Assembly (NCBI GenBank): GCA_026985095.1 | Contig: JALSQW010000008.1 | Coordinates: 50,470-114,469, forward strand | Source: Acidimicrobiia bacterium | Lineage (GTDB): Bacteria; Actinomycetota; Acidimicrobiia; Spongiisociales; UBA5794 | DNA: 64,000 nucleotides | Reading direction: 5' to 3' | In this document: positions 17,835-28,105 of the stretch, piece after piece | How positions within the stretch are numbered: the first letter of the stretch is position 1 | Layout: each line of letters opens with the position of its first letter | Made by a program: the position numbers and the translations under genes | The notes under the pieces: generated by a model | Seen by the model: the letters and a program-made list of their open reading frames with translations, nothing else | Databases searched by the model: none | Told to the model about the DNA's origin: nothing

Positions 17835-19085
17835 TCAGGACCGGATCACCGGATCGGGCCCGACCGCCACCACCCGCTCGATGGCCCGGTACACCCGTTC
17901 CTGCATCCCGACCTCGTCCGGTTCGAGCAGGTTCGCCATCACCTTCAACGCCCATTCCATCAGGGGGCGGGACCGCAAGCCGACACGGGTGAGCGCCCGC
18001 ATCAACGTCGGGTTGCCGATGGCGATCACGAACGCTCGCGCCACCCGGTGATAGGCCCCGTACTCGTCCTCGATCGCCCGAGCGTACGCCCGCAGCCTGC
18101 CGGAGCCCGGATCGGCGAGCTCCTCCACCACGTAGGAGGCGGCGAGCCGTCCGGTCTCGTAGGCGTAGTCGATCCCCTCGCCGTTGAACGGGTTGACGGC
18201 GCCGGCCGCGTCGCCGACCAACATCCAGTTCTCCCCCGCCTTCGGGCCCACCGAGAACGCCATCGGGAGCTTGCCGCCGGTGGGAGCGACCAGCTCCGAG
18301 TCCGGGCCGATGGCCCAATGGTCGGGAAGCTGGGCCAGATAGGCGTCCTGGACCTTGGAGGTGTTGACTTCCTTCCAGCCCTTGAACGAGGAGATGACCC
18401 CCACCCCGACGTTCACCGTCCCGTCGCCCATCGGGAACACCCATCCGTACCCGGGCATCGAACGACCTTCGCGGTCGCGGATGTCGAGTTGGCTCTCCAG
18501 GAACCCGTCACGACTGTTGGGGCTGGCGTAGTACCCCCGGACGGCGAGCCCATAGGGGAAGTCGCGGCGCCGATGCGTCCCCAGGGCGCGACCGAACCGG
18601 GACAGCGAGCCGTCGGCGACCACGACCACCCGGGGGGTGATCCGCTCGACGGCGCCGTCGACGACGAGATCGACCCCGACGAGGCGACCATCGGCGACGA
18701 CGGCCCGCGCCTCGACCCCATCATCGACGGTCGCTCCTTGCGCGGCGGCCAACGCGGCGACCTGCATGTCCAGGTCGGCCCGACGCAGCGTCGCACCCCA
18801 CGTGGGATAGATCGTGTGCCGAGGCCACGGGAGCTCGAGGGTCAAGTCACCGGCGTACGCGCGGAGGCCGGAGATCCTGTGCACGTCGTCGGCGTCGAGG
18901 TCGAAGCCCATGTCGATGAGCTGCTTGACGGCCCGCGGCGTCAACCCGTCGCCGCAGGTCTTGTCGCGGGGATACCGCTTCTTCTCGACGAGACGGACAT
19001 CGGCGCCGGCCTTGGCGAGCCAGAACGCGGACGCGGCACCGCCGGGGCCGCCGCCGACCACCAGGACGTCGGGTGAGGAGCTCAT
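17835..19085 (-). CDS. geranylgeranyl reductase family / MenJ-like menaquinone reductase
   Basis: VGGGPGG FAD motif, PRDKTCGDGLTPRAV, GYGWVFP, GDAAG, NGEGI. Confidence 0.85.
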   Translation of the reverse strand: MSSSPDVLVVGGGPGGAASAFWLAKAGADVRLVEKKRYPRDKTCGDGLTPRAVKQLIDMGFDLDADDVHRISGLRAYAGDLTLELPWPRHTIYPTWGATLRRADLDMQVAALAAAQGATVDDGVEARAVVADGRLVGVDLVVDGAVERITPRVVVVADGSLSRFGRALGTHRRRDFPYGLAVRGYYASPNSRDGFLESQLDIRDREGRSMPGYGWVFPMGDGTVNVGVGVISSFKGWKEVNTSKVQDAYLAQLPDHWAIGPDSELVAPTGGKLPMAFSVGPKAGENWMLVGDAAGAVNPFNGEGIDYAYETGRLAASYVVEELADPGSGRLRAYARAIEDEYGAYHRVARAFVIAIGNPTLMRALTRVGLRSRPLMEWALKVMANLLEPDEVGMQERVYRAIERVVAVGPDPVIRS

Positions 19086-19119
19086 GGGCGTCGAGGCTAC
19101 CGGCGGGAACGACCCGCCG

Positions 19120-20166
19120 TCAGCCTGCGGCTTCCACCAAACCGCAGTCGGTCTCCGCGGTCGCCAGGTCCTCGCCCCCGAACGCGACGCGCTCGTACAG
19201 CACCACCTGGGCGATCTGCTGGTCGGTGAGCTGACCACCGAACGGCGGCATGCCCCCCGCCACCGGCTTGCTCGTCGCACCGTAGGTCGGGTCGGGCCAC
19301 CCGGCGGAACCCAGCGTCACCCACTCGACGTGAGACGAACACGAACCCTCCGGGAAGGTCTGGAGCACCGCGCCGCCGGCCATGCCAGGGCCGACCCCGC
19401 CCTCGCCGGCATTGCCGTGGCAGATCGCGCACGACTCGGCGAACAGCATCTCCCCGGCGGTGAAGTTGTCGACCGTGCCCTGACCGTACGGGTTCCCGTC
19501 GCAACCGACGGCCTCGCCCGTCACCGGGTCGATGGCGAGCTGCCCAGCGCTGCCGCACGCCGGCCCGTTGGGGACCGCGGCGATGTAGACGACGGCGAAG
19601 ACCGGGATGATCACGAACAACGCGGCGAGGAGCGCCGGGTAGCGGCTCGCCTTCTTCGGTTCGGGCGCCGGAGCCTCGGCCTCCGCGGCGGGCGCCTCGG
19701 CCGGTTCGATGACCTCGACCGGGGCCTCCGTCGGCGCGACCGGGCCGGGGGCAGCCGCCTCGGCCGGGGCAGGAGCGGGGCCGGCCGGGGCGACCCCTGC
19801 GGCGGGCAGTTCGATGCCCGCCCATTCGGCCAGCACCGCTTCGACGGCGATGCCTTCCTTCTTGGCGCGGGCCCCGGCCGACCGCTCGACCAGCGAGGCA
19901 GGCATCCCCTTGGCCTCGGCGGCCTTGGCGATCAGCTCGTCCTTCGAGATCGCGGCGGGGGCCGGAGCGGGAGGCGCCTCCGCCGGAGCCGGAGCCGGAG
20001 CGGCGGGTGGGGCTGCCTGCGCCGTCGGAACCTCCTCGCCGGCCCACTGCGCCAGGACCTGCTCGACGGGCACCCCGAGCGCCTGGGCCCTGGCCTGGGC
20101 GGAGCGGTCGACCATGTCGGCCGGCACACCGGTCGATGCTGCGATACGTTGGATGAGCTCTTCCAT
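19120..20166 (-). CDS. membrane-anchored monohaem cytochrome c with two N-terminal helical repeats
   Basis: CAICH haem motif, GGMPPFG Met ligand, single TM, Ala/Pro linkers. Confidence 0.88.
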   Translation of the reverse strand: MEELIQRIAASTGVPADMVDRSAQARAQALGVPVEQVLAQWAGEEVPTAQAAPPAAPAPAPAEAPPAPAPAAISKDELIAKAAEAKGMPASLVERSAGARAKKEGIAVEAVLAEWAGIELPAAGVAPAGPAPAPAEAAAPGPVAPTEAPVEVIEPAEAPAAEAEAPAPEPKKASRYPALLAALFVIIPVFAVVYIAAVPNGPACGSAGQLAIDPVTGEAVGCDGNPYGQGTVDNFTAGEMLFAESCAICHGNAGEGGVGPGMAGGAVLQTFPEGSCSSHVEWVTLGSAGWPDPTYGATSKPVAGGMPPFGGQLTDQQIAQVVLYERVAFGGEDLATAETDCGLVEAAG

Positions 20167-20172
20167 GGTCCC

Positions 20173-22116
20173 CTACTTCAGGCTGGTCAGGTAGACGGCG
20201 AGGGCATCGAGATCCGCGTCGGACAGGTACGAGTAGGCCGGCATGAACGACCACGGCCGCTCCACCCGCGGATCGGCCAGATGCGCGAACAGGAACTCGT
20301 AGCTGTTGGATCCCTCCCGCGAACCGAGATGCATCAGGTCGGGTCCAAGGCGCCGGTACCCGCGCTGGATCGGATCCTCGTGCACGTAGTCACCAGCGAC
20401 GCTCACCGGTCCCAAGCCCACGTCGGGAACCACCGCCCGCACCTCCTGGGTGTGGCAGACGGCACACCCCTCCCGAAGGTAGACCGCACGACCACGCGCC
20501 TCGGCGCTCCCCGCCGGGTAGATCCGGCTCTCGTCGGCCAGGATCGTCGACGAGGCGATCGCCGGATCGAGCGACGGGAGGAACCACATCATCGTGCCGA
20601 CGATCAGGAACAGCGACACCGCACCCCACCGCAGCTGGCCCCACCGCACCGTCGCCACGCCCCCCTCGATCTCGAGATCGATCGGCTCGGCGTCGACCGC
20701 CGGCAGCTCGGGTCCGCTCCGGGCGACCGGACTGAACGCACCGACCACGAAGAGCCCCTGTGCCAGGGCGTAGACCGCCATGCCGATCGCCGCGACCCCG
20801 AGGTACGGCTTCAGCCGGGCCGCGGTGTTGAAGAACCCCGCCCCGGTGTCGACGAACAGCCCCGAGTTGGCGCCGCTCGCCCAGGTGAACCCGGCCAGCG
20901 CCGCTCCCAGCCACACCGACACCAGGACCAGTCCGAGGCCGACCATCGTGTAGCGGTAGTGCCACGTCGCGACCTGCTCACGGGCCGGAGACGCGCCCGT
21001 TCCCAGCACGTGATAGGCGAAGGCGAACAACCACATCGACACCGCCCCCAGGAACATCAGGGCGTCGTTGGCGGCCACCCATCCGGTGAACTGGACGATC
21101 GCCGACGAGGTTCGGGTCGTCGCCACGATGTCGGCCAGCGGCACGATCGCCAGCATGGCGCCGCCCGCCACCAGGAACCGCAGGGTCACCCGGTCGGGGA
21201 TCTGGAGCCAGCGACCACGCATCTCGAGCACGAAGTCGGTGACGATCACCGCCACCGGGACGACCAGCGCGATCGACGCCGCCACGCCGAGGGTCTCGAG
21301 CCAGTCGGGACCCGCGCCGTAGATCAGATCCCGCGGCCCGGTCGCCGCCCACACGAACGCCAGCGACCAGAACCCCAGCACGCTGACAGCGCTGGGCTGG
21401 ATCGGATCCGCGCCCGCCAGGCGAGGGATGAGGTAGTACACGACACCGACGCCGGCCGCCGCGAACCACAGGCCGGTGAGGCCGGCGCGGTAGAACGAAC
21501 TCTGGATCTCCCCGGCGTACCCACCGACCCCCGGCAGGGTCCCAACGACCGAGATCAGGACCAGCCACCACGTGGCCGCCACCAGGTACCACTCGGCCGG
21601 GCCCAGCCGATCCCGGCGATGAGCCACGGTGGCGGTCGCCACCCACGCCACCAACACGAAGCCGGCCAGGAGCAAGACGTCGGACCACAGCGGCATCTCC
21701 TGGTACGCCCTGCCCTCGGACGCGCCGAGGTAGATCGAGGCCATCCCCGTCGCCACTCCCACGGTGACCAGGATCAGGGCCACCAGCGCCGCTCCCTCGT
21801 GGCGCAACGGCCCGGAGGTCAGCCGAGGCAAGATGTAATAGATGGCCCCGATCAGCCCGATCGTCAACCATCCGTACAGCAACGCCGCGGTGGCGATCGG
21901 CACCAGGCGCCCGTAGGAGAACAGCACGATCCCCGAGTAGGCGCCGGGGACCGCCAGCTCGATCGAGGCGGCGGCCAGCAGCAAGGTCGCCACCACCAGG
22001 AACACCGACGCGATCACGAGATGGGCTCGCACGAGACCCGACGGACCGTGATCGGTCACCGGCGACGGCGGTACCGCCGGCTCCTGGACGTCGTTGTCGG
22101 CCAGATCGGTCGTCAC
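20173..22116 (-). CDS. cbb3 oxidase subunit I-like (no His ligands) fused to subunit II-like cytochrome c
   Basis: CcoN-like landmarks (YGRLVP, YYLIP, GFW, PDW, LRFLV, FTGW); CcoO-like EGCAVCHTQEVR, RLGPDL, SFMPAY. Confidence 0.85.
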   Translation of the reverse strand: MTTDLADNDVQEPAVPPSPVTDHGPSGLVRAHLVIASVFLVVATLLLAAASIELAVPGAYSGIVLFSYGRLVPIATAALLYGWLTIGLIGAIYYILPRLTSGPLRHEGAALVALILVTVGVATGMASIYLGASEGRAYQEMPLWSDVLLLAGFVLVAWVATATVAHRRDRLGPAEWYLVAATWWLVLISVVGTLPGVGGYAGEIQSSFYRAGLTGLWFAAAGVGVVYYLIPRLAGADPIQPSAVSVLGFWSLAFVWAATGPRDLIYGAGPDWLETLGVAASIALVVPVAVIVTDFVLEMRGRWLQIPDRVTLRFLVAGGAMLAIVPLADIVATTRTSSAIVQFTGWVAANDALMFLGAVSMWLFAFAYHVLGTGASPAREQVATWHYRYTMVGLGLVLVSVWLGAALAGFTWASGANSGLFVDTGAGFFNTAARLKPYLGVAAIGMAVYALAQGLFVVGAFSPVARSGPELPAVDAEPIDLEIEGGVATVRWGQLRWGAVSLFLIVGTMMWFLPSLDPAIASSTILADESRIYPAGSAEARGRAVYLREGCAVCHTQEVRAVVPDVGLGPVSVAGDYVHEDPIQRGYRRLGPDLMHLGSREGSNSYEFLFAHLADPRVERPWSFMPAYSYLSDADLDALAVYLTSLK

Positions 22117-22269
22117 GATCCGCGCATCCTCCTCGGGTCTGTGTTCACGGCCGGCCGGAAGCCTAGCCGCGACGCCGTCGCCGGGATTGTCCTTCGCCGG
22201 GCCGAAGGCGTCAAAGCGAGGCCGGCGGCGGTCTCACCGGAACGGATTCGTTCGCGGCCGCCGGATGCG

Positions 22270-22275
22270 TACAAT
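22270..22275 (+). promoter_or_regulatory. putative -10 element (TACAAT) of the cytochrome bc operon
   Basis: TACAAT ~30 nt upstream of AGGAGG RBS in the divergent intergenic region. Confidence 0.45.
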
Positions 22276-22306
22276 GCGCCCGCCAAGCCAGACCCGTCCC
22301 AGGAGG

Positions 22307-22897
22307 ATGACCCTGAACGACCGAGCCAAACTCGCCGGAGGCCTCACCGCGATCGCCGTCGGGATCGTCGTGGCGCTCGGTGCTGCCTTCGTCGTGCACG
22401 CTGCCGAAGCACCCCGGTTCAACGAGTTCGGACAGGAGATGTTCCCGGCCATCCCCCGAGCGTGGCAGCTCGTCACCCTCGCCCAGATCGTCTCTTTGGG
22501 AGGGGTGTTCCTGGCCATGGGAGGATTGGCCCTCGCCTACATCTACGACCGGCCGCTCACCTGGGCCCGGGCCGCGGTCGGCGCCGCCTTGTTCGTCGCC
22601 ACCACGCTGATCCTGTTCGGGATCGTCCCCAACCAGTACCTCACCCTCGCCCAGGCGACCTGGGAGTGGACCCCGACGAAGACCTTCGTGACGATCCCCC
22701 GATGGCTGGTCCTCAACAACGACCTGTCGATCAGCTACGCCGCGTTGAAGGACATGATCTCGGGTGCGTACGCCGTCGTCGCCCTCGTCGCCGTCGGCCT
22801 GGCCATGGTCAAGTGGCAGGACCGCCAGAAGAAGGCGGCGGCGCCCAAGCCGACGCCGATCTCCGAATACGGCCGACCGCTGAAGGTGGAGGGCTGA
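22307..22897 (+). CDS. hypothetical membrane protein (about 4 TM), first gene of bc operon
   Basis: Hydrophobic helices, C-terminal SEYGRPL; stop overlaps ferredoxin start. Confidence 0.75.
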   Translation: MTLNDRAKLAGGLTAIAVGIVVALGAAFVVHAAEAPRFNEFGQEMFPAIPRAWQLVTLAQIVSLGGVFLAMGGLALAYIYDRPLTWARAAVGAALFVATTLILFGIVPNQYLTLAQATWEWTPTKTFVTIPRWLVLNNDLSISYAALKDMISGAYAVVALVAVGLAMVKWQDRQKKAAAPKPTPISEYGRPLKVEG

Positions 22898-23337
22898 TGG
22901 CCAAGAACGACGTCTGGTTCGAGACCCCGCCGCTGCGGGACGACTATCAGCTCGCCGCGGTCGACGGCGACTACCTGACCAAGGCGGTCAAGCCCAAGCA
23001 GTTCCTGCACATCAACCAAGCCGAATGCATCCTCTGCGAAGGCTGCGTCGACATCTGCCCGTGGAAATGCATCCACTACCTGTCGGTCGACGTCGTCGCC
23101 GAGGCGGTCAACGTCGACGACCCGAAGGCCAACGCCGAGAACCGCGGCGTGTTCATCGTCGACGAGGACGAATGCACCCGCTGCGCCCTGTGCATCGATC
23201 GCTGCCCGACCGGCGTCATCACCCTCGGCAAGTTCGCCGGCTCCCTCGCCGAACAGGCCGAATCGATGGCGCCGTGGGAGTTCGACACGGGCGAACGCGA
23301 CTTCAAGAACGGCTACCTGTATGGCGTGCGGTGGTAG
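22897..23337 (+). CDS. 2x[4Fe-4S] ferredoxin
   Basis: CILCEGCVDICP and CTRCALCIDRCP. Confidence 0.92.
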   Translation: MAKNDVWFETPPLRDDYQLAAVDGDYLTKAVKPKQFLHINQAECILCEGCVDICPWKCIHYLSVDVVAEAVNVDDPKANAENRGVFIVDEDECTRCALCIDRCPTGVITLGKFAGSLAEQAESMAPWEFDTGERDFKNGYLYGVRW

Positions 23338-23418
23338 CCCGAGAGGCGTGACCCGGAATTGGAACCCGGCCTCCCGCGAGGCAAACTGACAAGACCCAGG
23401 ACACGGAGGAACCGACAG

Positions 23419-24183
23419 GTGGCGAACGGCAACAAGGGCGGCGGCATGAGCGGCCTGCTCGACCATGTCCGCGAGAGCCAGGTGTGGAACTCGATCTTCC
23501 GCCCCGGCTCACCGTTCCGGGCCGGCTACTCGGACTCGCCGAGGAACCGGTCGTACGTGATCATGAACAACGTGCTCTATCACCTCCACCCGGTGAAGGT
23601 GAAACGTCACGGCGTCCGGCTGTCGTACACGTTGTGCCTCGGCGGGCTCAGCTTCTTCCTGTTCATCGTGCTGACGATCACCGGCATCTTCCTGATGTTC
23701 TACTACCGGCCGACGTCGCCCCAGGCGTATCTGGACCTCCAGGCGTTGACGACCGACGTGGCCTTCGGCAACCTCGTGCGCAACATGCACCGCTGGGGCG
23801 CCCACCTGATGGTGCTATCGGTGTTCCTCCACATGGCCCGGGTCTTCTATCACGGGGCCTACAAGCCGCCGCGAGAGTTCAACTGGGTCGTCGGTGTCCT
23901 CCTGCTGCTGCTGACGCTGCTCCTGTCGTTCACCGGCTACCTGCTCCCCTGGGACCAGCTGGCCCTGTGGGCCGTGACCGTCGGCTCGACCATGGCCAGC
24001 TACACGCCCGTGTTCGGGAGCCAAGTGAGCTTCGTCCTCATCGGTGGCGTCCAGATCACCCCCGACACGTTGCTGCGCTGGTACGTGCTGCACGTGCTGT
24101 TCCTCCCGTTCATCATCACCATCTTCCTGGCGGTCCACTTCTGGCGGGTCCGCAAGGACGGCGGCATCTCCGGACCGCTCTAA
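23419..24183 (+). CDS. cytochrome b6-like subunit (N-terminal half of split cytochrome b)
   Basis: LCLGG, RNMHRWGAH, FLHMARVF, KPPREFNW, GYLLPWDQ, YVLHVLFLP, AVHF, GISGPL end; GGAGG RBS. Confidence 0.93.
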   Translation: MANGNKGGGMSGLLDHVRESQVWNSIFRPGSPFRAGYSDSPRNRSYVIMNNVLYHLHPVKVKRHGVRLSYTLCLGGLSFFLFIVLTITGIFLMFYYRPTSPQAYLDLQALTTDVAFGNLVRNMHRWGAHLMVLSVFLHMARVFYHGAYKPPREFNWVVGVLLLLLTLLLSFTGYLLPWDQLALWAVTVGSTMASYTPVFGSQVSFVLIGGVQITPDTLLRWYVLHVLFLPFIITIFLAVHFWRVRKDGGISGPL

Positions 24184-24194
24184 GGAGGCGACGA

Positions 24195-25043
24195 GTGGCA
24201 GAGATCCCAGAACACATCCTGCGGCGCTCCGCCGAGGCGCGCGCCAAGGCCGAGGGCCGGAGCGTCGAGGAGGTCCTCGCCGAGCTCAAGGGCGAGGCAC
24301 CGCCACCGCCGACCTCCGCCGCGAGCGGCGCCGCGCCCGCCGGCCGCGACCTGGCCGCCGAAGCCGAATCCTCCGGCGTGCCCCAACACCTCCTGGAACG
24401 GGCCATGCGAGCCCGGGCCAAGGCCGAAGGCAAGCCCGTTCCGGCCGCCGGTGGCGGTGCAGCCACCGCCACCGCCACCGCCACCGCTCCGAAGCCCGCC
24501 GCCGCACCGGCGCCGGCGGTTCCCCCCGGCGTCCGTACCCAGCGACTCCTCACCGTCGTCAAGGCCGGTGCCATCCAGCAGGTCAAACGGGAGCCCCACG
24601 ACAAGGTGAACGTGTGGCCGCATCTGCTGGCCATCGAGTTCGTGGCATTGCTCGCCTGCCTCGCGTTCTTGATCGTCCTGTCGATCTTCCTCGAGGCACC
24701 GCTCCTCGAGTTCGCCAACTTCAACGAACAGCCGAACCCGTCCAAGGCCCCGTGGTACTTCCTCGGCCTGCAGGAGATGCTCGCCTACTTCGACCCGCAG
24801 GTCGCCGGCGTCATCATCCCCGGCTTCGGACTCGCCGCCCTGGCGATGATCCCCTACGTCGACAAGAACCCGTCGGTGCGACCCTCGGACCGCAAGCTGG
24901 CGATCATGATCTTCACGTTCTTCATCATGGCCGCGGCGGTGCTGACGATCTTCGGGTCGTTCTTCCGCGGACCAGGGTTCAACTTCACATATCCTTGGAG
25001 GGACGGAATCTTCTTCGACGACCTGAAAGCGATCCTCGAATGA
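24195..25043 (+). CDS. cytochrome b6 subunit IV-like (PetD-like) with N-terminal repeat extension
   Basis: WPHLL, PNPSKAPWYF (PEWY equivalent), IPYVD; AAGGAGG RBS. Confidence 0.88.
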   Translation: MAEIPEHILRRSAEARAKAEGRSVEEVLAELKGEAPPPPTSAASGAAPAGRDLAAEAESSGVPQHLLERAMRARAKAEGKPVPAAGGGAATATATATAPKPAAAPAPAVPPGVRTQRLLTVVKAGAIQQVKREPHDKVNVWPHLLAIEFVALLACLAFLIVLSIFLEAPLLEFANFNEQPNPSKAPWYFLGLQEMLAYFDPQVAGVIIPGFGLAALAMIPYVDKNPSVRPSDRKLAIMIFTFFIMAAAVLTIFGSFFRGPGFNFTYPWRDGIFFDDLKAILE

Positions 25044-25918
25044 ACCCCACCACCATCTTCGCCGTCGCCCTCATCGCCACCGGCGTCCTCGCCCTCGCCG
25101 GGATCCTCGCCGTCGCCGTGCGACGCGGCAACGAGCCCGGCCCGATGACCGCCGCCGAGCTCGACCGCAAGGCCCTCGAACGCGACCGCAGCCGCCGCGT
25201 CGAGCCGACCGCAGAGGCGCCGAGCGCGGTGGCGACCCTGGAACGGACGGAAACCGAAACGGAGACCGAGGCCGGGCCGGCCGAGCCGCCGGTCGACCCG
25301 ATGCTGCAACGTGTCGAGGTCTCCGAGAACGACTACGGGGTCACCCGCCGCCAGTTCTTCAACCGAGCCCTGCTCGCGGTGTGGGGGCTCTTCCTCGCCC
25401 AGTTCGGCCTGTTCAGCCTCGCGTTCCTGTGGCCCAAGCTGAAGGGCGGCTTCGGCACCAAGGTCAACGCCGGCAAGCTCCTGGACATCAAGGAGCAGCT
25501 CTTCGACGGAGCCACGATCGTGCCGCTGCACAACAACCCGGCCCAGGCGTGGATCGTGCCCTTCGAGCTGAAGCTCCTCGAGGACGTCCCCGGCAACTCC
25601 TTCGAGAACCTTCCGTTCCTCATCGCCGGCGGCGAAGACGACGGCATCGGGATCATGGCCATGTGGCACCGCTGCGTCCACCTCGGCTGCCGGGTGCCCG
25701 AATGCGTACCGTCACAGGGCTTCGAATGCCCATGCCACGGATCGAAGTACAACATCCACGGCGAGTACGAAGCTGGACCGGCCCCCCGCAACCTCGACCG
25801 TTTCGCCGTCGAGGTCAACGACGCCGGCGAGCTGATCATCGACACCGGCAACGTCGTCCAGACGCCCCGAGCGAAGAACAAGACCGCCATGTACCCCCAG
25901 GGTCCGTTCTGCGTGTGA
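25040..25918 (+). CDS. Rieske [2Fe-2S] subunit
   Basis: CVHLGC, CPCHGSKY, GPAPRNL, internal Tat motif TRRQFF. Confidence 0.93.
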   Translation: MNPTTIFAVALIATGVLALAGILAVAVRRGNEPGPMTAAELDRKALERDRSRRVEPTAEAPSAVATLERTETETETEAGPAEPPVDPMLQRVEVSENDYGVTRRQFFNRALLAVWGLFLAQFGLFSLAFLWPKLKGGFGTKVNAGKLLDIKEQLFDGATIVPLHNNPAQAWIVPFELKLLEDVPGNSFENLPFLIAGGEDDGIGIMAMWHRCVHLGCRVPECVPSQGFECPCHGSKYNIHGEYEAGPAPRNLDRFAVEVNDAGELIIDTGNVVQTPRAKNKTAMYPQGPFCV

Positions 25919-25919
25919 G

Positions 25920-27611
25920 GTGATCGCCCTGCTGCAACCGTCCACGATCGTTCTGGCCGCCGTCGAGGAGGCCGCACCGGCTCGCCCCGAGGTCTTCGGC
26001 GTCGGTGCCCTGGCCCTGACCCTGGCCGTCGTCGCCGTTCTCGGCTGGATGACCTACCTGTACGTCAACTCCCGTCGTCGGCGCTCCGCCGAGCTCGAAG
26101 AGGCCCCCGACAACCTGTCGCCGTACCTGTCGGACGACGAACTCGAGAACGTCCGTTCCACCCGGGTGCTGCGAGGCGCGGTGTTCGCCGCCGCGTTCTT
26201 GGCCATCGTCATGACCGTCTACGCTGCCGCCGAACCGAGCCGCCAGGCCAAGGCCGCCGACACCATCTCCGAACAGGCCATCGAACGCGGCGCAGAGCTC
26301 TACCAGCGCTTCGGCTGCGTCGGCTGCCACGGGCCCGACGCCGGCGGAGGGGCGGCGCCGTTCACCGAGGCCCGCAGCAACGTCGACACGGGCTGGGTGG
26401 TGCCCTCCCTCAACGACGTCTTCCTCCGGTACAGCGACGAGGAGATCCGCTTCTGGATCACCTACGGTCGGCCGGGCACGCCGATGCCCGCCAACGGCCT
26501 CGAAGGGGGCGGCGCGATGACGTTCCAGGAGATCGACGAGGTCATGGCCTACCTGCGCTCCATCCAGATCAGCCAGGCCGACACGCTCGCCAAACGCGAC
26601 GGTACCGTCCAGTCGGCGCTGGCCCGCATGGCCAACGGCGACACCACCACCGCCCAGCTCATCGCCCTGCAGGACGCCAAGATCGCCGAGATCGCCGCCG
26701 CACCGGGGAAGGTCGACGCCGCCGGGACCCTCGACACGGAACTCGAGGCGCTCCTCGCCGGAGCCGGCACCTGCACCGTCGAATCGGCCCACGCCGTCGA
26801 GAAACCGTGCGACGACCCAGCCCCCGACACCGACCGCGATGGGTTGTCCGACGCCGCCGAACCGGCGATCACCGAGATCGCCGCCACCGCGCTCGAGCAC
26901 CTGACCGTCCTCAACGAGACCAAGACCACGGACCGACTCGAGCCGACCTTCGATCCGAATCCCGTCTACGACAAGCGGTTCGATCCGGAGAACGCGTTCA
27001 CCAACGTCACCCCCTCGGGTCGCGCCGTGCCGGACCTGGACGCCGCCATCGAGGTCCTCGAGAGCCTGCGCACCGACCTCCTCCTGCTTCGGGTCGCCGC
27101 CGAACGCCAGGACGCGTTCCTCGGTGACCTCCAGCTCGGTCTCGACTACCTCCGACAGGCCGCCGACGAGCGACCGTGGATCATCGACCCCACCGCCGCC
27201 GCCGAGGCGATGACCGACCAGCTCGCCGCCGACATCGCCGCCATGGAAGCCGTCGGCGCCGATCCCGAGGACATCCCCCCGCCACGGGTCATCTCCGTCG
27301 ACGAAGCCGAACGTGCCATCGGTCTGTTCAACGGCTACTGCGCTCGCTGTCACACCGGCGGCTGGTCGGCCGGGCCCACCTTCGAACAGGGCCCCGGCAG
27401 CGGAGCGTGGGGACCGTCGCTGAAGGAAGCCCGCTCGGTCGTTCAGTTCCCGAACTGGACCGACCAGGTCAAGTTCGTCATCAAGGGCACCGACCAGGCC
27501 GCCCACTACGGGGTCAACGGCATCGGTTCGGGTCGGATGCCCGGATTCGGGATGGTGCTGTCGGAGGAGGACATCGAGTTGATCGTCATGTTCGAGAGGT
27601 CGCTGCGATGA
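25920..27611 (+). CDS. membrane-bound dihaem cytochrome c
   Basis: CVGCH and CARCH, MP ligands (GTPMPA, GRMPGFG), two N-terminal TMs. Confidence 0.9.
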   Translation: MIALLQPSTIVLAAVEEAAPARPEVFGVGALALTLAVVAVLGWMTYLYVNSRRRRSAELEEAPDNLSPYLSDDELENVRSTRVLRGAVFAAAFLAIVMTVYAAAEPSRQAKAADTISEQAIERGAELYQRFGCVGCHGPDAGGGAAPFTEARSNVDTGWVVPSLNDVFLRYSDEEIRFWITYGRPGTPMPANGLEGGGAMTFQEIDEVMAYLRSIQISQADTLAKRDGTVQSALARMANGDTTTAQLIALQDAKIAEIAAAPGKVDAAGTLDTELEALLAGAGTCTVESAHAVEKPCDDPAPDTDRDGLSDAAEPAITEIAATALEHLTVLNETKTTDRLEPTFDPNPVYDKRFDPENAFTNVTPSGRAVPDLDAAIEVLESLRTDLLLLRVAAERQDAFLGDLQLGLDYLRQAADERPWIIDPTAAAEAMTDQLAADIAAMEAVGADPEDIPPPRVISVDEAERAIGLFNGYCARCHTGGWSAGPTFEQGPGSGAWGPSLKEARSVVQFPNWTDQVKFVIKGTDQAAHYGVNGIGSGRMPGFGMVLSEEDIELIVMFERSLR

Positions 27612-28105
27612 CGACCCGGACCCGCCGCCCTCGAGGATCGGGCCTCGGGCTCCTCGAGTGGGCCGGCATCGTGTCGGGGATCATCGTGCTGCTGGCCCTC
27701 ATCCCCGCCGTCCGCGAGGTCATGGCCGACGCCGTCGGGCTCATCTTCAATCAACGTGACCCCGACACCGGCCACGTGACCGCCTTCTCGCAGATGATGC
27801 GAGGGATCGGCATCACCATCGGAGCCGTCGTCGTGTTCATGGGTTCGGGTTGGCTGATCTTGATGACGAACCTCGGCAAGCGTCTCGCCTTCCTCGTCGC
27901 CGGCGCCGCCGTCAGCGGCTGGATGATCATGAGCGGGCTCCTCTTCGTCGTGTTCGCCCCCCGGGGCGTGCGTCCGGCGAACCTCGAAGGCCTCAACGCG
28001 CTCCAGATGCGGATCCCGGCGATCGCCATGACCCTGGGATCGGCCGTCCTGTTCGTGATGTTCGTGCTCGCCCTCGACCGGTACGAGAAGGACGAACCGG
28101 CCTGA
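27608..28105 (+). CDS. hypothetical membrane protein, last gene of bc operon
   Basis: About 4 TM helices; ATGA overlap with cytochrome c stop. Confidence 0.75.
   Translation: MTTRTRRPRGSGLGLLEWAGIVSGIIVLLALIPAVREVMADAVGLIFNQRDPDTGHVTAFSQMMRGIGITIGAVVVFMGSGWLILMTNLGKRLAFLVAGAAVSGWMIMSGLLFVVFAPRGVRPANLEGLNALQMRIPAIAMTLGSAVLFVMFVLALDRYEKDEPA

Follow-up and report, generated by a model that had tools for sequence, protein, structure and literature searches.

We describe a short helical repeat domain carried by several aerobic respiratory-chain subunits in the actinobacterial class Acidimicrobiia. It was found in two proteins encoded on a 64,000-nucleotide stretch (the window) of an Acidimicrobiia bacterium genome (assembly GCA_026985095.1, contig JALSQW010000008.1, positions 50,470 to 114,469), a membrane-anchored monohaem cytochrome c and subunit IV of a cytochrome bc complex. 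The repeat is a real conserved domain and not low complexity; it is unnamed, and it is specific to the class. We tentatively read it as a shared cytoplasmic protein-protein docking module on respiratory subunits, a reading that we place first among several while holding it to be short of probable.

The window region, with a GC content of ~70%, holds two divergent respiratory operons. The cytochrome c gene (19120-20166, - strand; 348 amino acids) starts 7 nt past ccoNO, on the same strand and in the same operon. Its product is ordered as two N-terminal modules, Ala/Pro linkers, one transmembrane (TM) helix, and a class I haem domain that matches Pfam Cytochrome_CBB3/Cytochrom_C at residues 234-324; residues 1-200 gave zero Pfam matches. 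The second carrier (GTG start at 24195, AGGAGG 8 nt upstream, end at 25043, + strand; 282 amino acids) has two N-terminal copies ahead of helix E and is a cytochrome b6f-type subunit IV (PetD) of a b6-type bc complex. It contains a Cytochrom_B_C domain (PF00032, 36.6 bits against a cut-off of 20.7, residues 177-258 of the 285-residue translation of 24186-25043) and directly follows a four-helix cytochrome b6. A NCBIfam ExtQ match to this protein falls under its cut-off.

An earlier note on this DNA had described four copies of one motif in the two proteins, all N-terminal, ahead of the first TM helix, and separated by Ala/Pro linkers. All four copies are found at these places in this arrangement. 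Module 1 of the cytochrome c (residues 1-45; 20032-20166, -) is a complete three-helix unit, with AlphaFold2 helices at 2-12, 16-30, and 34-42 and a predicted local distance difference test score (pLDDT) of ~90. It is followed by a linker (19951-20031, -) with an Ala plus Pro fraction of 0.82, predicted to be disordered (pLDDT <50 at residues 45-70), and by a second complete three-helix unit (residues 73-119; 19810-19950, -; helices 3-14, 18-32, and 36-43, pLDDT 95.8). A further linker (19651-19809, -), acidic in composition and with an Ala plus Pro fraction of 0.61, carries KK just before the single TM anchor recognised in the sequence at residues ~173-205 (19552-19650, -). On the make-up of the copies the description needs correction: copy 1 of subunit IV (residues 1-35; 24195-24299, +) comprises helices 2-3 only and starts at the initiator Met, and copy 2 (residues 49-92; 24339-24470, +) comprises helices 1-2 only, with a Pro/Ala/Gly linker in place of helix 3. 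Likewise, the core of the motif stands as described, but the full unit is ~45 residues long, and its earlier helix, DELLxKVAEAKG, had been missed in the cytochrome c copies. Across the core, the four copies share 12-19 of 31 residues pairwise. A profile of the four copies, run against the 2.93 Mb genome translated in every reading frame (six), recovered these four alone (E 5e-18 to 3.5e-15); as the profile was trained on the copies themselves, independent support comes from homologue conservation. The next genome hit (C12:1232-2185, E 0.025) lies in an unrelated sequence and frame and was dismissed as chance.

A word-seeded search with cytochrome c residues 1-120 returned 141 proteins at E ≤ 0.01, 120 of them listed. 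All 120 listed homologues contain the repeat, in two (30 proteins), three (76), four (12), five (one), or six copies (one), and the 347 copies stack into a full unit reading [TS]MDELLxKVAEAKG-MPASLVERSAEARAKKTG-xTVEAVLAEWAG. Within this unit, P3, S10, A11, and A13 are conserved in 99-100% of copies, with S10 at 100%; V25, L26, W29, and G31 in 92-95%; and R9 and R14 in 78-87%, position 14 being Arg in 87% and Lys in the remainder. Copy 1 of subunit IV reaches 86% mean column identity over ten subunit IV proteins from across families. In another genome (G067), the cytochrome c and subunit IV open with identical 11-12 residues (MTEIPEHLLKRS/A). AlphaFold2 folds a single unit, from a 53-sequence alignment (A2), into a three-helix bundle (pLDDT 95.8; predicted template modelling score, pTM, 0.76), which bears out the earlier description of a discrete helical module. 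Given the first 125 residues of the window cytochrome c, it returns two bundles with pLDDT ~90 and a disordered linker with pLDDT <50; the overall pTM of 0.36 for the two tandem units points to independent beads that do not pack on each other with confidence.

Searching 1.84 billion representative proteins with the A2 profile gave 455 matches at E ≤ 0.001, of which 234 reach E ≤ 1e-10. Within the class, 251 of 401 genomes match at E ≤ 0.001. Strong matches (E < 1e-9) concentrate in the window's own order and in one further family, here f12. The own-order families retain the module in 104 of 109 genomes (f1 22/24, f2 48/48, f3 10/13, f4 9/9, f5 3/3, f6 5/5, f7 2/2, f8 5/5), and all 65 of the f12 genomes, which are streamlined to ~1 Mb, do so as well. 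The remaining families of the class match at E around 1e-4 to 1e-7 only. These weaker matches are real but minimal: in the same carriers helix 2 stands by itself at the start, as M-[AT]-E-I-P-E-H-L-L-K-R-S...ARAKA, and subunit IV often has another copy ~40 residues downstream. A profile of the core helix (A3, 26 columns), applied to a phylum-wide sample, matches 28 of 30 other in-class genomes and eight of 370 out-of-class genomes, the latter all at E ≥ 8.6e-4. The class-wide matches to helix 2 (xxIPEHLLxRSAxARAKAxG) therefore mark it as the ancestral element, which two lineages have elaborated into a three-helix form with multiple copies. The genome tallies given here and below include genomes flagged as unpublished (G250, G389, and G212 for the class; thirteen for the ferredoxin discussed below; G772 and G776 for the 7-TM protein), and no single claim depends on them. 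A correlation between the three-helix form and the cbb3 oxidase was considered and dropped. CcoN is found at E ≤ 1e-40 in 50 of the 401 class genomes and in none of f12, but this threshold is too strict, since an f12 genome has a divergent COX1-like gene before a module-bearing CcoO.

These data also dispose of the simplest alternative, namely that a ~70% GC genome with Ala/Pro-rich linkers has produced a chance similarity or an Ala-rich low-complexity stretch without functional unit. The earlier note had left room for homologues that share only such composition; what they share instead is an invariant P and S and near-invariant R, V, L, W, and G over the 347 copies. AT-rich genomes of ~1 Mb, whose linkers differ in composition, have the domain too; its fold is predicted with confidence, and it is confined to the few hundred proteins counted above out of 1.84 billion. 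Chance is thus refuted as an explanation.

The earlier note had further given no known named domain for the repeat, and this agrees with searches of Pfam, NCBIfam, the PDB, and the ESM Atlas, none of which placed it in a named or characterised family. On both window proteins, Pfam and NCBIfam leave the repeats blank save for DUF3562, which scores 14.3 bits (E 0.033) where the cut-off is 26.3. In 18 carriers from examined loci, 57 representatives, and seven further carriers, the repeats gave no domain hit in which any one stretch passes. The A2 profile finds no better than E 1.5 among the 177,635 distinct chain sequences of the PDB. At the level of structure, Foldseek returned nothing from the PDB at E ≤ 0.001, its top hits being designed helical toroids, and VIA-align brought five of 48,161 chains to Z ≥ 5 (a designed toroid at 6.1, RPA AROD at 5.6/5.4, NasR at 5.2, and EutV at 5.1). 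All VIA-align matches lie under the level that the tool states as noise for helical bundles. The ESM Atlas offered no usable feature-based hit, and structural neighbours there were unnamed clusters or the domain's own relatives. A literature search, covering articles without their supplements, found no description of the module, of an Acidimicrobiia bc/ferredoxin complex, or of the organisation of the aerobic chain in the class, and those parts of PMC5600118 that were available mention neither the module nor the complex.

The same searches bear on a regulatory or ligand-binding role, in which the repeat would be an element resembling a helix-turn-helix (HTH) whose invariant Arg-Ser binds a phosphate-bearing ligand (nucleic acid, lipid head group, or nucleotide) or serves as a phosphorylation site that tunes respiration. 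Helix 1, Gly, and helix 2 have HTH-like spacing when read from the sequence by eye. Xre-like-HTH (PF20432) is reported at E ≤ 0.001 in three of the 57 representatives, with significance arising only from scores summed over repeat arrays; in the best case (P0126) the whole-protein E is 7e-10 and zero stretches pass. HTH_23, Sigma70_r4_2, and HTH_31 likewise match some repeat arrays weakly, below threshold, and membership in the HTH profile families was rejected for lack of a significant single-domain match. Ribbon-helix-helix and ANTAR proteins are among the weak structural neighbours (Z 3.1-5.2). The ANTAR domains of NasR, EutV, Rv1626, and AmiR align over 46-47 residues at Z 4.6-5.2, with root-mean-square deviations of 2.2-2.4 and 0-13% identity, and Pfam ANTAR gave no hit in the carrier scans. 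Complete invariance of S10 and the strong conservation of R9/R14 would suit such a role. Against it, the structural matches are all of the noise-level kind described above, copy 1 of subunit IV lacks helix 1 and so has no HTH there, and the modules, with isoelectric points of 4.5-6.4 in the cytochrome c, are acidic to near-neutral, unlike DNA- or lipid-binding domains. We regard this explanation as improbable, and as the least likely of the three rivals to docking that survive the exclusion of chance; the charge of the modules is more in keeping with binding to protein than to nucleic acid or lipid.

The set of carriers turned out to be wider than first seen. Subunit IV, the first, bears 1-5 copies, the first of which always stands at the Met and lacks helix 1. 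The second is the anchored monohaem cytochrome c, encoded beside the bc operon or after ccoNO and bearing 1-6 copies in confirmed cases. In G067, the positional orthologue of the window cytochrome c adjoins the bc operon with no intervening ccoNO and with the same flanking gene for a flavin adenine dinucleotide (FAD) enzyme. In the window, this FAD-dependent gene, geranylgeranyl-reductase-like by eye, follows the cytochrome c gene at 17835-19280 (-), and it is the similarly starting gene at the equivalent place in G067 that identifies the two cytochromes as positional orthologues, although only in the window does ccoNO separate the cytochrome c from the bc operon. The third carrier is free-standing CcoO (FixO), with one copy, in genomes whose CcoO is unfused from CcoN, including in other families of the order. 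In the window, CcoO is fused and so leaves no free N-terminus for a module.

The fourth carrier is a ~400-residue protein with seven TM helices (7-TM), no Pfam family, and one N-terminal unit (P0228). Of the 151 genomes of the order, 91 have a match at E ≤ 1e-8, which in some cases covers the N-terminal unit only; the protein was not found in the window's own genome (G000), and among 19 genomes of the window's own family it is found in just one, and there weakly. Its gene (examples at L093 6233-7459, -; L094 6019-7182, +; L131 514-1638, -) lies within 10 kb of COX1-COX3-COX4_pro in seven of eight loci examined, and adjoins a Caa3_CtaG gene in an f12 genome. Possibly the family is a so far overlooked subunit or assembly factor of aa3 oxidase. 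Conserved neighbours of 300, 446, and 266 amino acids, without known function, also stand near COX1-COX3-COX4_pro together with this protein.

Variants of these carriers include divergent subunit IV proteins that Pfam misses and proteins in which helix E of subunit IV is fused to the membrane protein that follows the dihaem cytochrome c. Two metagenomic proteins (P0121 and P0131) have this fusion behind 3-7 modules, and the subunit IV fusion P0121 sets the copy-number maximum of seven. One f12 genome (G089) contains four matches, in subunit IV, in CcoO as recognised by Pfam, in the next gene downstream, and in the 7-TM protein; the gene after CcoO probably encodes the anchored cytochrome c. 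In the 18 locus carriers and the 57 representatives, which are of at least 200 amino acids, the only domains above noise were Cytochrom_C/CBB3, FixO, and Cytochrom_B_C. Among 27 re-examined carriers, four have a subunit IV-like TM part, two are fusions of helix E with the membrane protein, and one is the 7-TM protein; most of the rest lack TM helices and look like fragments. A homologue search with the membrane part of subunit IV returned only relatives of 82-99% identity, none of them from other lineages. Among the carriers examined, all belong to the aerobic respiratory chain as far as was seen. This breadth, with CcoO, the cytochrome c after ccoN(O), and the 7-TM protein at aa3/CtaG loci, favours a role in the whole aerobic chain over one specific to the bc complex.

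In every carrier the copies precede the first TM helix. The cytochrome c has no signal peptide and begins with ~170 hydrophilic residues, followed by the KK-flanked TM helix and the CxxCH domain. In a type II anchored cytochrome c the haem domain necessarily lies outside, which puts the modules of this protein in the cytoplasm. Subunit IV has its N-terminus on the n-side (negative side) of the membrane in solved b6f structures, and CcoO of cbb3 oxidases has an N-in anchor. The cytoplasmic exposure put forward in the earlier note is thus inferred from N-terminal position combined with established topology rules.

Exclusively respiratory carriers, flexible cytoplasmic display, variable valency, retention in streamlined genomes, and acidic-neutral modules together argue for a selected, chain-wide role, for which docking is the most economical reading. 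The module would bind a common site at the cytoplasmic face, offered by a further copy, by the bc complex on its n-side, or by some soluble or assembly partner common to the carriers, and would thereby keep the anchored cytochrome c and the oxidases near the bc complex. With 1-7 copies displayed on flexible Ala/Pro or acidic linkers, copy number may set avidity and reach. Several points weigh against this. The fold offers no functional lead, as it resembles only three-helix bundles of a generic kind (best Z 6.1); the unpacked tandem units in AlphaFold2 (pTM 0.36) are a weak sign against strong self-association in cis; regulation or intramolecular packing would explain the invariant Ser and the small helix 2 residues just as well; and the 7-TM carrier is linked to aa3 by gene neighbourhood alone. 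A stronger form of the docking idea is a multivalent cytoplasmic "Velcro", in which contacts between modules, or between modules and the bc complex, would each be weak but multiplied by the 1-7 copies on their long linkers, and would so draw the bc complex, cytochrome c, cbb3, and the aa3 assembly line into one respiratory patch or supercomplex. We consider this form doubtful.

A second reading is a biogenesis or assembly tag. Here the module, as the first part of the protein to emerge from the ribosome, would be read by a common targeting, insertion, or assembly factor and have no role in the finished complexes. The minimal class-wide motif begins at residue 2-3 of the cytochrome c and of subunit IV, every carrier is an N-in membrane protein, and one carrier is encoded beside the assembly factor Caa3_CtaG. 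Internal copies, up to seven per protein, and long linkers are nevertheless hard to fit to a targeting signal, and no candidate receptor is at hand. We judge this explanation unlikely on balance, yet it is the most likely of the rivals to docking, ahead of ferredoxin binding and of the HTH-like role.

The earlier note had suggested docking or oligomerisation, with tethering of the cytochrome c to the bc complex or recruitment of the ferredoxin; as a general idea, its docking module is plausible. In the ferredoxin version, the modules would hold the 2x[4Fe-4S] ferredoxin encoded in the bc operon against cytochrome b6/subunit IV on the n-side, and the same ferredoxin would be the docking point for the copies on the cytochrome c or CcoO. 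The gene order of ferredoxin-bearing bc operons (the window; L070, L073-L086) is membrane protein, fdx, b6, subunit IV, Rieske, and dihaem c, and ferredoxin orthologues occur in 157 of 401 phylum genomes, among them genomes of other classes with this same order. A ferredoxin subunit on a Rieske/cytochrome b complex seems to be little described in Actinomycetota. Motif and ferredoxin are both present in the same 28 of 30 in-class genomes and both missing from the same two. A C-terminal GYxYGxR[LWFM] tail, present in 12 of 12 in-class and neither of two out-of-class ferredoxins (alignment A4), coincides with the class-specific motif, and the N-terminus of subunit IV lies on the side where such a subunit would sit. 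On the other hand, 128 of 370 out-of-class genomes have the ferredoxin, against the eight with a motif match reported above, and the three out-of-class operons examined are otherwise identical and lack the motif, which shows that ferredoxin recruitment does not require the module. The 7-TM carrier at aa3 loci, moreover, has no obvious link to the ferredoxin. A complex prediction combining the ferredoxin (A4), subunit IV copy 1 (A5), and a cytochrome c unit (A2) gave interface scores (ipSAE) of 0.01 and 0.00, without controls, and supports no verdict. The ferredoxin-specific version of docking is therefore weakened, and we regard it as rather improbable.

The remaining genes of the two operons complete the setting. 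Upstream of the cytochrome c gene, 20173-22116 (-) encodes a 647-residue CcoN-CcoO fusion of a cbb3-type oxidase (Pfam COX1 and FixO; NCBIfam PRK14485, bifunctional subunit I/II). The bc operon starts with a membrane protein without family (22307-22897, +), continues with the ferredoxin (22897-23337, +; both by Pfam scan) and cytochrome b6 (23446-24183, +; Pfam Cytochrome_B, PF00033; NCBIfam ExtP 301.5 bits, cut-off 290), immediately 5' of subunit IV, and runs on to the Rieske protein (25043-25918, +) and the dihaem cytochrome c (25920-27611, +), neither of which bears a module. Near its first helix, cytochrome b6 contains YTLCLGG, presumably with the Cys that binds haem cn/ci in b6f, which suggests a true three-haem b6-type cytochrome. 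The operon is flanked by two membrane proteins without Pfam match, the opening one and a second at 27611-28105 (+); both have homologues at equivalent operon positions in G067, judged by position and by looking at the unaligned sequences, and the first also has a weak tblastn match beside the operon in G008. The 70% GC content also produces artefactual open frames of great length on the wrong strand or in the wrong frame, such as 18814-23337 (+) with 1507 amino acids, of which the final 146 codons are the real ferredoxin gene.

One dedicated domain that occurs on subunits of three distinct complexes, and that even genomes of ~1 Mb have kept, suggests an undescribed way to hold or assemble respiratory complexes. 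Hundreds of proteins have 100-450 residues that are left unannotated, so the domain merits a database family entry, and the module is usable as a pull-down bait, a deletion target, and an annotation marker for these subunits. If it does act as supercomplex glue, it adds a cytoplasmic mode of coupling between respiratory complexes. Should the multivalent form hold, respirasome assembly would be driven from the cytoplasm, a principle not described for any respiratory chain, and this in a class that counts some of the smallest free-living marine Actinobacteria among its members.

Several known systems resemble parts of this arrangement. One is the N-terminal tail of out-of-class subunit IV proteins (A7; 20 sequences; L084-L086, L101-L120), which occupies the same place between b6 and helix E in the same operon and forms a helix-Gly-helix, DQEVYDRLIAxGxSERIARAKAKAA, with an Arg/Ala/Lys-rich second helix; several families also have LTPEERxARVAA further downstream. 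These tails have no multi-copy form and were not found on cytochromes c, and hhalign pairs them with the module (A2) at 19% probability over 12 columns; they are possible distant cousins. The CcoP/FixP family is another neighbour. Its members are dihaem proteins with a FixP_N anchor, encoded after ccoNO(Q); the window cytochrome c has one CxxCH only and scores 21.9 bits with TIGR00782 (ccoP; cut-off 179.95), FixP_N appears only weakly in relatives, and membership was rejected. As a membrane-anchored cytochrome c it may act like CcoP without being a CcoP member.

The peripheral subunit-binding domain (PSBD; Pfam E3_binding) of the E2 component of 2-oxoacid dehydrogenases has ~35-45 residues, a conserved Arg, a Gly turn, and Ala/Pro linkers, and recruits partners. 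Its likeness to the module is one of architecture alone, since PSBD has two helices, belongs to a soluble complex, and shows no sequence match: E3_binding (PF02817) is not listed for the window proteins at E ≤ 0.1 or for other carriers at E ≤ 0.01/0.001.

Cytochrome cy has its flexible linker in the periplasm and is not known to have a cytoplasmic domain. Like the window cytochrome c, it has an N-terminal anchor and carries electrons between the bc complex and cbb3 oxidase, and it embodies the same tethering idea. In Rhodobacter capsulatus it is reported to be membrane-anchored within a bc1-cbb3 supercomplex (PMC7876108). In contrast to cytochrome cy, modules and linkers here are N-terminal to the anchor and cytoplasmic, and the module is also present on subunit IV, CcoO, and the 7-TM protein. 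Within the same phylum, Mycobacterium and Corynebacterium are reported to form an obligate bcc-aa3 supercomplex (PMC8361435, PMC5040959, and PMC4505504). The likeness is that there is no soluble cytochrome c, and that complexes III and IV need physical coupling. In bcc-aa3 this coupling is provided by a fused dihaem QcrC and by membrane and periplasmic contacts, whereas in the window b6 and subunit IV are split and accompanied by a ferredoxin gene, the anchored cytochrome c is a protein of its own, the oxidase is of the cbb3 type, and the shared element is cytoplasmic.

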